DNA of 64,000 nucleotides from an uncultured Clostridia bacterium (GCA_948777935.1 CAQDYY010000002.1:43251-107250); one strand, 5' to 3'. Positions 36,029 through 61,527 are shown, counted from the stretch's first letter. The notes: generated by a model from the letters alone, not told the origin. Numbers and translations: made by a program.

Positions 36029-36256
36029 TGTTATTTTTCACAGCCGATATAATATCTCTATATGAATATATTTTGTAAGAACCCTCCGTCAGTGCTTCGC
36101 ACTGCCACCTCCCTTAGGTAAAGGAGGCTTTCCTCTACAATTCAAAATAAACTATTCTAATCTAAACAGTAGAGTAAAGGCCCCTTTATTCAAGGGGGCT
36201 GTCAGCGAAGCTGACTGGGGGTTCTAAAAATGATATTATTTTTTAGCTGTGAATTA
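36029..36256 (+). repeat. Copy R1 of a ~230-bp hairpin-rich intergenic repeat (conserved core 36079-36224).
   Basis: Core GAACCCTCCGTCA..GCCACCTCCCTTAGGTAAAGGAGGCTTT.CTCTAC..GTAGAG..GGCCCCTTTATT.AAGGGGGCTG..GAC.GGGGGTTC. Flanked by the 11-bp direct repeat TAGTATCTACT (36018-36028 and 36257-36267). Confidence 0.8.
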
Positions 36257-36293
36257 TAGTATCTACTTTCTATCATATATATGTATTAAAAAA

Positions 36294-37346
36294 TTATTTA
36301 TACCTATCTTGAATTTCTTTTATTTCATCATAACTATTATTCAAAATATCTAAAAATACATCAGCAAGTTTTGGATCAAACTGAGTACCTTTACATCTTT
36401 CAATTTCAGAGGCAACCACCTCAAGAGGCAAAGCATCACGATAAGTTCTTTTAGAAGTCATAGCGTCAAAAGTATCTGCAATAGCTGCTATACGAGCAAA
36501 ATAAGGAATATCTTCTCCCTTTAATTTTGCAGGATATCCATTACCATCATATTTTTCATGATGATGTTTAACGATAGGAATAATATTTTGAAAAATAGTA
36601 GCATTTGATAAAATGTGAGCACCAATTGTAGGGTGGTTCTTAATTTCAGAATACTCATCATCCGTAAGCTTACCTTCCTTTAGCAAAATACTATCAGGAA
36701 CACCAATTTTGCCAATATCGTGGAACAAACCTCCAATTTGAAGAACCTTTAAATCCTCATCAGGTAACCCTAAATGTTTACCAATTAACACACTAAACTC
36801 AGAAACACGATCAGAATGACCACGAGTATAAGTATCCTTTGCCTCTACAGTATAGCGTAATGTTTGTATACTTTCCATATAAGCGCGTTCCAATTTATCA
36901 TATGTATCTTTTAACTCATCATTAATCTCTTTAATAGTATTCATTTGTGAAATAGCCTTAATACCAGACTCAATAAGTAATAATAATTGATCAAACTTAT
37001 CACTCTTTTCGCAATAACCTTGAATATCAAGCCTACGTATAGTCTCCAAAGGAGGAGCTAAATCTTTATGACCAGTTAGTAATAAAATGTATAATTCTTT
37101 ATTAAATTTTCTAATTTCTTCAACAACTTGATCACCATGAATAGGAGTCATAATAAAATCTAGAAGCATTAAATCAAAATGTTCATTTTTTACTTTCTCA
37201 ATAGCTTCCATTGGATCAGTAACTCCAGTAAACTCATAGCCAGAACGTTTTAAAAAAATAGAAAGAGAATCAATAATTCCTTCTTCATCATCAACTACAA
37301 TAATTTTATAGCCATTAGAAGGATTAGCCATATTACCTTTTCTCAT
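36294..37346 (-). CDS. Response regulator: receiver domain plus HD-GYP phosphodiesterase domain.
   Basis: REC: KIIVVDDEEGI..DLMLLDFIMTPIHG. HD-GYP: GHSDRVSE, GLFHDIGKIGVP, HHEKYDGNGYP. ATG 37346 is preferred over GTG 37355. Confidence 0.8.
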   Translation of the reverse strand: MRKGNMANPSNGYKIIVVDDEEGIIDSLSIFLKRSGYEFTGVTDPMEAIEKVKNEHFDLMLLDFIMTPIHGDQVVEEIRKFNKELYILLLTGHKDLAPPLETIRRLDIQGYCEKSDKFDQLLLLIESGIKAISQMNTIKEINDELKDTYDKLERAYMESIQTLRYTVEAKDTYTRGHSDRVSEFSVLIGKHLGLPDEDLKVLQIGGLFHDIGKIGVPDSILLKEGKLTDDEYSEIKNHPTIGAHILSNATIFQNIIPIVKHHHEKYDGNGYPAKLKGEDIPYFARIAAIADTFDAMTSKRTYRDALPLEVVASEIERCKGTQFDPKLADVFLDILNNSYDEIKEIQDRYK

Positions 37347-37435
37347 AAGTTTCACCTAAATCCTTTCTTAGTACACATTATATTAATAAAAAACAATAAA
37401 ATCAATAAAAATGCTAAAATATGTTATATTTTGGT

Positions 37436-37673
37436 ACTGTTTAATAATTTTTTGGGGGAACATATCTATATGAATAATTTTGTAAGAACCCTCCGTCAGT
37501 GCTACGCCCTGCCACCTCCCTTAGGTAAAGGAGGCTTTACTCTACTTTTCAAAATTAGTTATGCTAGTCTTAAATAGTAGAGAAATGGCCCCTTTATTTA
37601 AGGGGGCTGGCGCGTGAAACGCGACTGGGGGTTCTGATAAATATAATATTTTATATTAAATGTATTAAACAGT
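37436..37673 (+). repeat. Copy R2 of the intergenic repeat (core 37486-37634).
   Basis: Same core as R1. The outer stem is copy-specific (ACTGTTTAATA / TATTAAACAGT). Confidence 0.8.
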
Positions 37674-37681
37674 TATATATT

Positions 37682-59295: not shown

Positions 59296-59671
59296 GTGTA
59301 TTTACTAAAATAAACTGACAAATTAGTAAATATAAAAACCAAGCACTAGTGAATTTTAAGTAAAATCACTAGTGCTTAAGTTGTCTAAAAATGTCGAAAT
59401 ATTTTTGTTGCAAAATATCAAAAAAGATGTATAATAATAAAGAATTAAATCTAAAAATTGAAATTCAAAAACATCAGTGTAAAACAAAGTGAAAAAATTC
59501 TAAAAAAATCAAAAATAAAAATTTCAATAAAATAGAAAGCCAAAGGAGGTAATTAAAATAGAAACTAGTCAAAAAGAGGAAAAAACGAAGAAACATATTG
59601 ACAATAAAACAAATACGTATTATGATATATTTAAAAGAAAAGATATAGCAAAATTTACGTATAATGATTAT

Positions 59672-60682
59672 TTGTATATAGAAAGGCAAAAAACAATACA
59701 CTGTTCCGAGGTAAAAGAGGAAGGTGCAAAATATGAAGCAATATCTAACAGTATACCCAATGTACATGATAAAACATATAGAAAAATATTAGGAAACAAG
59801 ACAAATGCTACATATGTTATAAATAGAGCATTAAATTTAACAAAACCAATAGAAGCAGAAGAAATAGAACAATATACAAACAGATATATAACAAATGAAT
59901 ATACAGATAAAGAAACAGATATAGTATACAAAATGAAAAATAAAGAAATATACTTTTTAATAGAACATCAAAGTAGTGTAGATTATGCAATGAATTTTAG
60001 GTTAGAAGAATACAAACTAGAAATAATGAAAAGTGCAATAGATAAAGATAAGATAAAAACAAAAGAATATGAAGTGCCAACAGTAATACCAATAGTATTA
60101 TATACAGGAAAAGAAAAATGGACAGTAAGAAGAAAACTAAGTATGGTACAAGATGAAAGGCTAGAAAATCTAAATTTGAAACAATATAACTTAATAGATA
60201 TAGGTAAATATCAAAAAGAAGACTTATTAAAAAGTGATAAATATATGGACAAAATATTCTTAATAGAAAAATTTGACAATGTAGAAGAGCTAAGAAAAAT
60301 ATTGCCAAAAGTGGAAAAACAACTAGCAAAAGAAGAAAAAATTGACTTAATTAGCATAATAAGAGCAAATTTGAAAGGCAAAATAGGAGAAGAAAAGGTA
60401 GAAGAACTAATAAAAGAAATGAAAGGGGAAGGTGAAGATATGTTAGGATGTGTAGAAATGGTATGGGAAGAAGGAATAAATAAAGGAATGAAAGAGGGAA
60501 TGAAAGAAGGAAGAAAAGAGGGAATAAGAGAAGGAAAAAAAGAGGGAATAAGAGAAGGAAAAAAAATAATTATAAGTAATATGTTAAAAAATGGAATGAG
60601 TCCAAAGGAAATACAAGAAATAACAAAAGCAACAAAAAAAGAAATAATAGAAGCTAAAGAAAGTTGTGAAGCTTGCACATAG
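59672..60682 (+). CDS. Rpn-family recombination-promoting nuclease / YhgA-like PD-(D/E)xK transposase-like protein.
   Basis: HDKTYRKILGNK, ETDIVYKMKNKEIYFLIEHQSSVDYAMNFRL. C-terminal EGxxxG repeats (KEGMKEGRKEGIREGKKEGIREGKK). The start is uncertain: the frame is open from 59531, and GGAGG at 59545 is followed only by ATT/ATA/TTG. Confidence 0.7.
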   Translation: MYIERQKTIHCSEVKEEGAKYEAISNSIPNVHDKTYRKILGNKTNATYVINRALNLTKPIEAEEIEQYTNRYITNEYTDKETDIVYKMKNKEIYFLIEHQSSVDYAMNFRLEEYKLEIMKSAIDKDKIKTKEYEVPTVIPIVLYTGKEKWTVRRKLSMVQDERLENLNLKQYNLIDIGKYQKEDLLKSDKYMDKIFLIEKFDNVEELRKILPKVEKQLAKEEKIDLISIIRANLKGKIGEEKVEELIKEMKGEGEDMLGCVEMVWEEGINKGMKEGMKEGRKEGIREGKKEGIREGKKIIISNMLKNGMSPKEIQEITKATKKEIIEAKESCEACT

Positions 60683-60917
60683 AGAGTATCGTAAAGTTGT
60701 GTAAATTGGATTACTGTCTTTATAGAGGCATAGGTAAAGGGAATACATAAACTGTATTCCCATGTTTATTCCATAATAGGAAAGTTATACTTTCCTATTA
60801 TAGAAAACTTAATTGTACATAAATTTTTTAACAAAAATTTCGCACACGAATAAATTCACGGAAAGCCAAAGCAAAAGGTTAAAAATATGCTTAATTTAAT
60901 GGCTTTCCGATTTATTC

Positions 60918-61157
60918 TTACGCATTTTTTTCTATTTCATTAAGATAATACGAATAAGCTTGTTTTCCTATAATTTCAGAATAATTTTTCATATGCTTAT
61001 TTTCGCAATATAAATCAATATTTTGGCCATCTAAGCTAATAGTTGCAGACCCCATATAAGTCTTTTCTTGTGCTTTTCCAAATAATTTTGCTTGAACTGG
61101 ATGTAACATAAAAATATCATAATGATGTAAATCAACAGGAGTAATAGAAAATTGCAT
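60918..61157 (-). CDS. Hypothetical protein (79 aa from ATG 61157).
   Basis: AAAGGA lies 8 nt upstream of ATG 61157. No family recognised. Confidence 0.35.
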   Translation of the reverse strand: MQFSITPVDLHHYDIFMLHPVQAKLFGKAQEKTYMGSATISLDGQNIDLYCENKHMKNYSEIIGKQAYSYYLNEIEKNA

Positions 61158-61291
61158 ATTAAACATCCTTTCATCGCCTATAAAGGCTATTAACAATATT
61201 ATATTAAAAAACAAATTTAATACTCTTATATTATAGCATGCTTTACATAAAAAGTAAACAAAAATATTTTATGTAACATCAAATATTGTAA

Positions 61292-61527
61292 TTATTCAAA
61301 GCCATTTAATACAAAATATTGTGTATATTAGAACCCCCAGTCGTTCTTGCGAACGACAGCCCCCTTAAATAAAGGGGCCTCTACTCTACTATTTTAGACT
61401 AGAATAGTTTATTTTAAATTGTAGAGAAAAGCCTCCTTTACTTAAGGGAGGTGGCAGTGCGTAGCACTGACGGAGGGTTCTTACAGAATTATTCATATAG
61501 AGATTTTTTCAAAAAGCATTGAATAAC
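61292..61527 (-). repeat. Copy R4 of the intergenic repeat, inverted orientation (core 61331-61480).
   Basis: The reverse complement aligns with the R1-R3 core. The side hairpins have different stems (GTCGTTC-gcaa-GAACGAC). Confidence 0.8.

Follow-up and report, generated by a model that had tools for sequence, protein, structure and literature searches.

Short palindromic intergenic repeats are known from several groups of bacteria, including bcr1 in the Bacillus cereus group, ERIC/IRU in enterobacteria, Correia/NEMIS in Neisseria and RUP/BOX in pneumococcus. They carry target duplications and are often co-transcribed with adjacent genes, and for some repeats of the bcr1/ERIC/Correia/RUP type compensatory changes and roles as a terminator, RNase III site or mRNA stabiliser have been reported. 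In an ordinary transposable element of the miniature inverted-repeat type (MITE) the constraint lies at the ends, and bacterial MITEs are usually treated as junk constrained only there. Here we describe a repeat present in four copies, R1–R4, in a 64-kb stretch of DNA from an uncultured Clostridia bacterium (GCA_948777935.1 CAQDYY010000002.1:43251-107250; 64,000 nucleotides, hereafter the window). It has no sequence relation to bcr1, ERIC, Correia, RUP or BOX, and unlike those repeats, which are simple long hairpins, it contains a four-way junction; neither permuted members nor a core conserved above the ends have, to our knowledge, been reported for any of them.

The insertion sequences that the repeat resembles most belong to the IS66 family, whose inverted repeats start with GTAAGCG and which generate 8-bp direct repeats (PMC11946415). 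ISDge4, a member of the single-ORF (open reading frame) ISBst12 group, has the ends GTGACTACTCAGCA and GTAACTGCTCAGCA and an 8-bp direct repeat (PMC12898284). Like MITEs derived from IS66 (ISBst12 group, ISDge4), the repeat is small and non-coding, has GTAA/GTTA ends and an 8-bp duplication, and occupies AT-rich intergenic targets. Unlike them, it conserves its interior and not its ends, its interior covaries as a four-way junction, and it occurs in two circular permutations, called type A (that of the window) and type B. A literature search found no description of an equivalent element, and no precedent in such repeats for the four-way junction, for a core conserved above the ends or for natural circular permutation.

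The four copies, three on the plus strand and R4 on the minus strand, are 231–244 bp long by direct reading and alignment over ~240 bp, with the terminal inverted repeats marking their limits. A core string of 27 nt and another of 23 nt have exactly four matches each in the window and none in 100 dinucleotide-preserving shuffles, and a covariance model built from eight copies recovers R1–R4 and detects no fifth or degenerate copy in the window. The element is non-coding, the longest ORF in its 231–244 bp being 35 aa. A first-pass annotation of the sequence had described four copies at these places and a GC-rich core in an AT-rich genome; the reading and the exact string counts agree with the former, and the G+C content of 42–44% in the cores versus ~27% in the window agrees with the latter. 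Direct reading also confirmed the closing stem GAACCC.CC/GG.GGGTTC, the CTCTAC/GTAGAG stem, side hairpins that vary between copies yet always pair, and Shine-Dalgarno (SD)-like and anti-SD-like strings in the core. The outermost stems, described there as copy-specific and complementary, are indeed so, and correspond to the terminal inverted repeats of a transposon.

Based on these inverted-repeat ends and on 8-bp target duplications, the four repeats are mobile DNA, namely small non-coding MITE copies. The aligned full copies have homologous ends, 5'-GT(T/A)AYTRTT...AAYARTWAC-3', and in every full copy the two ends agree at 12–16 of their 18 terminal bases. Most ends start with GTAA or GTTA; the exceptions are the 5' ends of R2 (GGTA) and R4 (GTGG), and the 3' ends of R1 and R2 are divergent. 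R1 is flanked by a perfect 8-bp duplication and R3 by a nearly perfect one (Table 1). Among related contigs and loci, labelled L followed by a number, L047 is flanked by an 8/8 duplication, GAATTTGG, and the 8-bp flanks of the copy in L002 and of a remnant in L029 match at 6/8. The direct repeats of 11 bp (R1) and 9 bp (R3) reported at first are true target duplications, but their length is 8 bp, the extra bases being chance overlap with the element ends; a duplication of 11 or 10 bp, which would suggest an IS4-type element, was replaced by 8 bp after the ends had been aligned across copies.

The sites themselves record the insertions. R1 splits the intrinsic terminator of the response-regulator gene, sitting in its loop, and deleting R1 together with one 8-mer restores the minus-strand terminator hairpin ATAGAAAGTAG-ATA-CTACTTTCTAT with its T run. 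A comparison of occupied and empty sites had been proposed in the first-pass annotation, and L029, whose response regulator is 96% identical, provides it: the terminator is uninterrupted exactly at the R1 site, which is thus an intact empty site. The terminator is likewise uninterrupted at this place in the more distant relatives L006 and L009. A lineage at 98% identity keeps R1–R3 at the same sites, and in those at 93% and 89% the ~20 kb surrounding the locus contain no copy. The L002 copy is near-identical to R4 over the whole element, and the two lie at different sites in different metagenome-assembled genomes (MAGs). The initial description as a MITE-like repeat is therefore sustained by the terminal inverted repeats, the 8-bp duplications, the empty site in L029 and the absence of copies from orthologous sites in related lineages.

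We file the repeat as an IS66/ISBst12-type MITE because of its GTAA/GTTA ends and the length of its duplication. The end GTTACTGTTCAGAC of L047 matches the ISDge4 end GTAACTGCTCAGCA at 10 of 14 positions. From these sequences we infer that the mobilising partner is an IS66/ISBst12-type transposase; no parent insertion sequence was found in the window, where the inverted repeat is confined to R1–R4. The only 'transposase' match near the copies is an Rpn/YhgA-like Transposase_31 (PD-(D/E)XK) gene ~600 bp from R4; as a candidate mobiliser it was set aside, as it does not encode an IS66 enzyme and no link to the repeat was shown, and it was treated as unrelated. A distant inverted-repeat match had pointed to a 3.2-kb candidate composite element in L002; this was also discarded, the interval being tig-clpP-clpX and the match due to chance. 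IS200/IS605 and REP/RAYT elements lack terminal inverted repeats, have a fixed target of 4–5 nt beside the left end and do not duplicate it, so that a cognate transposase of the IS200/IS605 or RAYT type, as envisaged at first, is a misfit for a repeat with terminal inverted repeats and target duplications. More generally, palindrome-associated elements of IS200/IS605 (PATE), REP/RAYT, integron attC, retron and IS110 bridge RNA were ruled out by the duplication, the ends and the absence of partner genes; for attC, the GTTCTAA/GTTCTTA ends do not fit GTTRRRY, and there is no integrase or cassette array.

To place the repeat among its relatives, databases were searched at the nucleotide, protein and RNA-family levels. 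Contigs near-identical to the window locus come from mouse-gut metagenomes, and a response regulator identical to the one encoded between R1 and R2 is encoded on the NCBI MAG GCA_949887975.1. An exact-pattern scan with the core 23-mer over one genome per species (185,579 species) gave four other uncultured Clostridia/Clostridium MAGs with one match each (L001–L004). Spurious ORFs over element cores are present in public protein databases, and a protein-database search with spurious core translations led to four further members (contigs L047–L051). Patterns anchored on helix P1 or on either of the two hairpins described below had no match in the JGI metagenome collection and viral contigs, and blastn against plasmids and phages gave no match. 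Searching Rfam with the window at the gathering threshold returned only tRNAs, and permissive searches with R1/R2 (E<=10) and with L003, L047, L048 and L051 (E<=1) returned nothing but chance matches to microRNA-like hairpins, so that the repeat still has no named RNA family to which it can be assigned. The fold analysis that follows uses 12 distinct members, including eight from beyond the window, from related genomes.

Conservation within the repeat is reversed with respect to an ordinary MITE: the centre is held and the ends drift. Expressed as pairwise means among five independent type A copies, identity is 1.00 and 0.96 in the 5' and 3' strands of P1 and 0.98 and 0.93 in those of P3, versus 0.78 in the P3 cap, 0.78 in P2, 0.63 in P4, 0.55–0.67 in the arms and 0.62–0.63 in the terminal inverted repeats. 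The core, ~146 nt and GC-rich, consists of two halves that pair into a four-way junction of helices P1, P2, P3 and P4. P1 has 9–11 bp (AGAACCCUC/GGGGGUUCU) with an invariant U.G; P2 is a 5–6-bp hairpin with the loop UUC, UAC or UUU; P3 (~22 bp) has a U.G that never varies, a bulged A that is conserved and, where it meets the junction, a C.C mismatch, and is capped in window-type copies by the CTCTAC/GTAGAG stem with an AT-rich loop; P4 is a 4–6-bp hairpin with the loop GAA, GUA, GCAA, GUAA or GAUA. Only ~6 nucleotides of the core are conserved and unpaired or mismatched. In R1, the 5' strand of P3 holds both the anti-SD-like CACCTCC and the SD-like AAAGGAGG. The core is also found with unrelated arms (window, L004, L033 and L047). 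Copies sit just after stop codons or in terminators.

We assessed the junction on the 12 distinct cores, aligned in one register with the permuted ones re-ordered, the variable hairpins padded with N and the alignment of P2 and P4 guided by structure. In the junction model 97.7% of the cells are paired, versus 31–59% when the partners are slid by 1–3 columns as a control. Pair changes on both sides number 14, versus 6.5 ± 1.4 in shuffles, none of the 500 shuffles being as high, and the covariation score is 0.257 versus 0.061 in shuffles; the compensatory stem changes first noticed among the window copies thus hold on the wider set. The compensatory pairs fall in P2 (4 of 6 pairs), P3 (6 pairs) and P4 (4 of 6 pairs, with ten stem sequences among the 12 members). 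P3 is 98.7% paired. P1 is nearly invariant, with 99.1% of its cells paired and the U.G wobble kept in 12/12 members.

The centre of the core had originally been drawn as two conserved hairpins. Among the first eight copies hairpins 1 and 2 are invariant, leaving the matter undecided, and RNAalifold already favoured pairing them together. In L051 (hairpin 1, CCTCCCGAGTGGCAAGGAGG; hairpin 2, GCCCCTTGCCATTCGGGGGC), seven consecutive P3 positions are changed on both strands and all still pair, while the local hairpins are reduced to 5 bp; in L033 and L047 one base pair is lost from both strands. When the hairpins are modelled locally, hairpin 1 has no compensatory pair and is 85% paired, and hairpin 2 has one. 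The two hairpins can form locally, but as the fold of the core they were rejected on these compensatory changes in favour of one long P3 helix. As the two hairpins covary with each other in the wider relatives, we conclude that the core is a four-way junction.

In type B (L033–L038, L047 and L051) the halves are in the opposite order to that of type A: the 3' strand of P3, P4, the 3' strand of P1, a loop of 14–17 nt, the 5' strand of P1, P2 and the 5' strand of P3. P1 is thereby a capped hairpin and P3 an open helix, and the predicted minimum-energy fold is the same junction. In L047 the inverted repeats, of the same family, are perfect over 15 bp and the 8-bp duplication is perfect too, indicating that both connectivities ride in bona fide mobile elements. 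The short sequences beside P1 and P3 are recognisably related by eye between types A and B; no single simple rearrangement was found that would derive one type from the other.

Some related loci depart from these two arrangements. In L048 (262–400), a GC-richer contig of 570 bp, a type A core is directly followed by a much more diverged half-unit, CAACCCCCCG-GCAC-TTC-GTGC-CA-CCCCCCTGCAGAGGGGGG, which hints at a wider, older family or at tandem arrangements. L039 (16240–16300) carries GAACCC and a hairpin 96% identical to the 3' strand of P3, followed by TTTTTG; this relic looks like a decayed copy that now resembles an ordinary terminator. Three close lineages show the insertion point between the kinase and regulator genes in three states: the window carries the type A copy R2, L033 (9674–9920, minus strand) a type B copy whose arms are unrelated, and L029 (~9870–9910) a remnant of 40 bp in which both termini, GGTAC...GTAAC, are preserved. 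Insertion targeted repeatedly to this point, or else replacement in place, would account for the three states. The loop of the response-regulator terminator also receives other DNA in sister strains. In L034 (~4497–4700) it holds an unrelated long-hairpin MITE of ~200 bp (fold z = −10.5) with, by eye, possibly GTAA/GTTAC-type ends, and in L022 (~11084–11180), L026 and L027 a third filler of ~95 bp. This loop looks like an insertion hot spot.

To explain these features, we propose with modest confidence that the repeat is a trans-mobilised IS66/ISBst12-type MITE whose core fold is selected as a single strand, more likely as RNA than as DNA. A DDE transposase encoded elsewhere would recognise the ~15-bp terminal inverted repeats, 5'-GT(T/A)AYTRTT..., cut the target with an 8-bp stagger and paste the element in, and the insertions that survive would mainly be those just 3' of genes, including those inside terminator hairpin loops. 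Selection would act on the folded single strand and not on the ends alone, as suggested by the near-invariant junction strands, by P2, P4 and the middle of P3 varying only with compensation, and by the permuted junction. As a committed guess, the fold would act as RNA when it is co-transcribed in 3' or intergenic regions of operons, where a very stable, terminator-compatible structure may stop or insulate read-through and block exonucleases, making insertions harmless or useful so that the element is kept in the genome. Such a role would explain why copies persist right after stop codons and in the terminator loop, where the stem of the terminator and its T run stay in position around a palindromic insert. 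For the fold, we lean towards RNA over DNA on account of the conserved wobble pairs and of asymmetries between the halves: G.U pairs occupy 37 cells versus 3 for A.C, two of the G.U positions never varying among the 12 members; the bulged A is conserved, and so is the way in which the halves differ; and the sense strand is the more stable in 9/11 cores.

Several observations weigh against this proposal. No IS66/ISBst12 transposase or full-length parent element was found in the ~616 kb examined, and the ends and the duplication length are all that the family assignment draws on. The duplications are weak, at 2–4/8, for R2 (2/8), R4 (4/8), L004 and L033. The fold is judged on only 12 distinct members, several of them close relatives, and inverted repeats descended from symmetric ancestors can mimic the covariation of P1 and P3 without selection on structure. 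Within the element, consensus scans gave neither a convincing promoter nor a strong terminator, the U-tracts after its GC hairpins are short in window copies, and copies lie in both orientations with respect to host transcription, R1 and R2 being antisense to the operon and R3, L001, L003 and L004 sense. The P2 loops (TTC/TAC) mirror the P4 loops (GAA/GTA), so that each DNA strand has one C-GNA-G triloop, which fits a fold at the DNA level; according to Hirao and colleagues, this triloop is reportedly of exceptional stability in DNA hairpins. Finally, a pure MITE model does not explain L003 (525–707), a bare core without arms or inverted repeats. This core directly adjoins the final codons of a miaB-like gene, with the frame of that gene extending for 14 codons inside it, and lies 25 nt upstream of a mutS start codon; a 60-aa ORF spans the whole core.

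More tentatively, and with a probability well below even, the junction (~110–146 nt) may represent a class of functional structured nucleic acid not described before, most likely of RNA, that depends on shape and not on connectivity and is spread by IS66-type MITEs. A decoy for a protein or for the ribosome is one candidate activity, given the anti-SD string and the perfect SD of the junction; a processing or catalytic motif that has gone unrecognised is another. Activity through three-dimensional shape would explain the natural circular permutations. This borders on a rather unlikely alternative, in which the core is itself the functional RNA, either a small non-coding RNA or a protein-binding, ribosome-binding or catalytic motif in cis, and the MITE only its vehicle; the core, the part visible to selection, would have been acquired by different MITE backbones or have inserted into them. 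A core far better conserved than its ends would then be expected, as would its occurrence with unrelated arms or armless, as in L003, next to housekeeping genes, and the same junction in both circular permutations; permutation is typical of RNA folds that work through three-dimensional shape, such as hammerhead and twister. The junction shares with hammerhead types I–III, twister P1/P3/P5 types and permuted group II introns the property of one junction with a strand connectivity that differs by locus. The G.U wobbles, the bulged A and the C.U and C.C mismatches conserved at the junction point the same way, as does the presence of the 16S anti-SD CACCUCC in one P3 strand and of AAAGGAGG in the other. 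However, unlike the permuted ribozymes, the core has no Rfam ribozyme match, or any other Rfam relative, nearly all of its nucleotides are paired, and there is no obvious catalytic core or nameable cleavage site; the conserved unpaired nucleotides are very few for a catalytic or ligand pocket. The consensus scans detected no promoter or terminator of its own, there is no conserved association with a gene, and mirror-image loops with near dyad symmetry are unexpected for an RNA of one strand. The family is also rare, being found in 4 of 185,579 species genomes and in none of the JGI metagenome or viral collections.

That the fold acts in DNA, with both strands mattering, we consider unlikely. 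A single-stranded (lagging-strand template) or cruciform junction would here nucleate a fold-back that joins the AT-rich ends for the transposase, or be bound by a structure-specific factor of the host or the transposase. The dyad symmetry of the core is near-perfect, its reverse strand scoring ~90 bits with the covariance model, folding with DNA parameters gives z = −10.2, and the P2 and P4 loops are complementary, with one C-GAA-G or C-GTA-G triloop per strand. The orientation relative to transcription is not fixed, and types A and B would follow from two inverted half-units forming an identical junction whichever comes first. Parvovirus inverted terminal repeats, integron attC and CTX phage attP similarly place a large palindrome around two small ones, with GNA triloops; unlike the repeat, these use HUH or tyrosine recombinases and make no 8-bp duplication, and neither such an enzyme nearby nor the attC R'/R'' consensus is present here. 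Moreover, the conserved G.U pairs become A.C mismatches on the other strand (the 37 versus 3 cells above), the halves differ in a conserved way (the bulged A, and T versus C at two positions), and the antisense strand is the less stable in 9/11 cores. The bare core of L003 has no ends to join, and IS66-type DDE transposases are not known to need folded ends.

A third alternative, in which the fold is under no selection and the repeat is a long imperfect DNA palindrome kept complementary by symmetric descent and by template-switch or arm-to-arm correction, is very improbable. The left half, compared with the right half in reverse complement, is ~85% identical, and covariation between halves is expected where transposon ends co-evolve. 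Yet P2 differs from P4 in every copy and each is compensated (4+4 positions), which arm-to-arm copying cannot do; the junction strands are near-invariant while the adjoining arms and loops drift, the asymmetries between the halves are conserved in all 12 members, and the permuted form keeps the junction. Least credible of all, to the point of being negligible, is a relic of a hairpin-dependent single-strand transposon (IS200/IS605 PATE, or REP with RAYT), for although the repeat has subterminal hairpins and a palindromic build, and R3, R4 and L002 end in TTAC, which we take to resemble an IS608-type target, it shows 8-bp duplications and 12–16/18 inverted repeats, no TnpA, TnpB or RAYT gene is nearby, and Rfam gave no match to an IS605-related RNA.

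For the MITE with a selected core, the contrast with the usual view of such elements is that the ends are ~62% identical and the inner junction is near-invariant, covaries in three of four helices and is met with in two circular permutations among several uncultured Clostridia of the gut. This pattern of constraint is a signature, or at the least a hint, of a fold with a function. If that function is at the RNA level, the copies would serve as ready-made mobile modules, 3' ends or insulators, by which operon boundaries are reshaped, cases in point being R1 in a terminator loop and R2 between the kinase and regulator genes. If it is at the DNA level, the fold would be a new requirement for IS66-type transposition. 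In either case, a GC-rich island in an AT-rich genome need not be a riboswitch but can be a mobile structured module. The coordinates of the copies, of the parts of R1 and of neighbouring genes are given in Table 1.

Table 1. Positions in the window of the four copies, of the structural parts of R1 and of nearby genes
Feature	Position	Strand	Description
R1, full element	36030-36260	+	231 bp; 5' inverted repeat GTTATTTTTCACAGC, 3' end GCTGTGAATTATAGT
R2, full element	37433-37676	+	244 bp; core ~37485-37636; between histidine-kinase and response-regulator genes
R3, full element	48391-48629	+	239 bp; core ~48441-48590; inverted repeats 16/18
R4, full element	61288-61530	-	243 bp; core ~61330-61481
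R1 target duplication, left	36022-36029		ATCTACTT; 8/8 identical to right copy
R1 target duplication, right	36261-36268		ATCTACTT
R3 target duplication, left	48383-48390		AAAACAGT; 7/8 versus right copy
R3 target duplication, right	48630-48637		AAAACAGC
Response-regulator gene	36294-37346	-	
Intrinsic terminator	36010-36275	-	split by R1: ATAGAAAGTAG...R1...CTACTTTCTAT, then T run
R1 P1, 5' strand	36078-36086	+	AGAACCCTC; nine pairs with 36217-36225
R1 junction	36087-36089	+	C mismatch, then GT
R1 P2 hairpin	36090-36104	+	CAGTGC-TTC-GCACTG
R1 P3, 5' strand (hairpin 1)	36105-36131	+	CCACCTCCCTTAGGTAAAGGAGGCTTT
R1 P3 cap	36132-36174	+	CTCTAC/GTAGAG stem, AT-rich loop; other sequence instead in L003
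R1 P3, 3' strand (hairpin 2)	36175-36201	+	TAAAGGCCCCTTTATTCAAGGGGGCTG
R1 P4 hairpin	36202-36214	+	TCAGC-GAA-GCTGA
R1 junction	36215-36216	+	CT
R1 P1, 3' strand	36217-36225	+	GGGGGTTCT
tRNA genes	1534-1797		cluster of three
tRNA gene	6999-7071		one gene
Tex-like gene	33469-35010	+	513 aa; next to DUF975
Nonribosomal peptide synthetase	39490-46944	-	2484 aa; two modules, terminal reductase-type domain
HepT-like/nucleotidyltransferase (MNT) pair	48709-49444	+	toxin-antitoxin pair immediately downstream of R3
Long ORF	52660-59295	+	2211 aa
Transposase_31 gene	59672-60682	+	Rpn/YhgA-like

Other features of the window are of minor interest. The nonribosomal peptide synthetase lies next to the kinase/regulator pair and varies in length between strains, from 1428 to 2488 aa in relatives. 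In the more distant lineages L006 and L043, a different gene, and not the HepT/MNT pair, adjoins the protease gene. The window has four tRNA genes. Within the 2211-aa ORF, an antisense ORF pattern repeats with a period of ~1.1 kb (55284–56362 and 56382–57460), which suggests that the ORF holds long internal tandem repeats. The Tex-like protein is shorter in the species of the window than in relatives, where it has 716–721 aa (L009, 11983–14148), and the gene may be truncated or split at its 5' end in this species.

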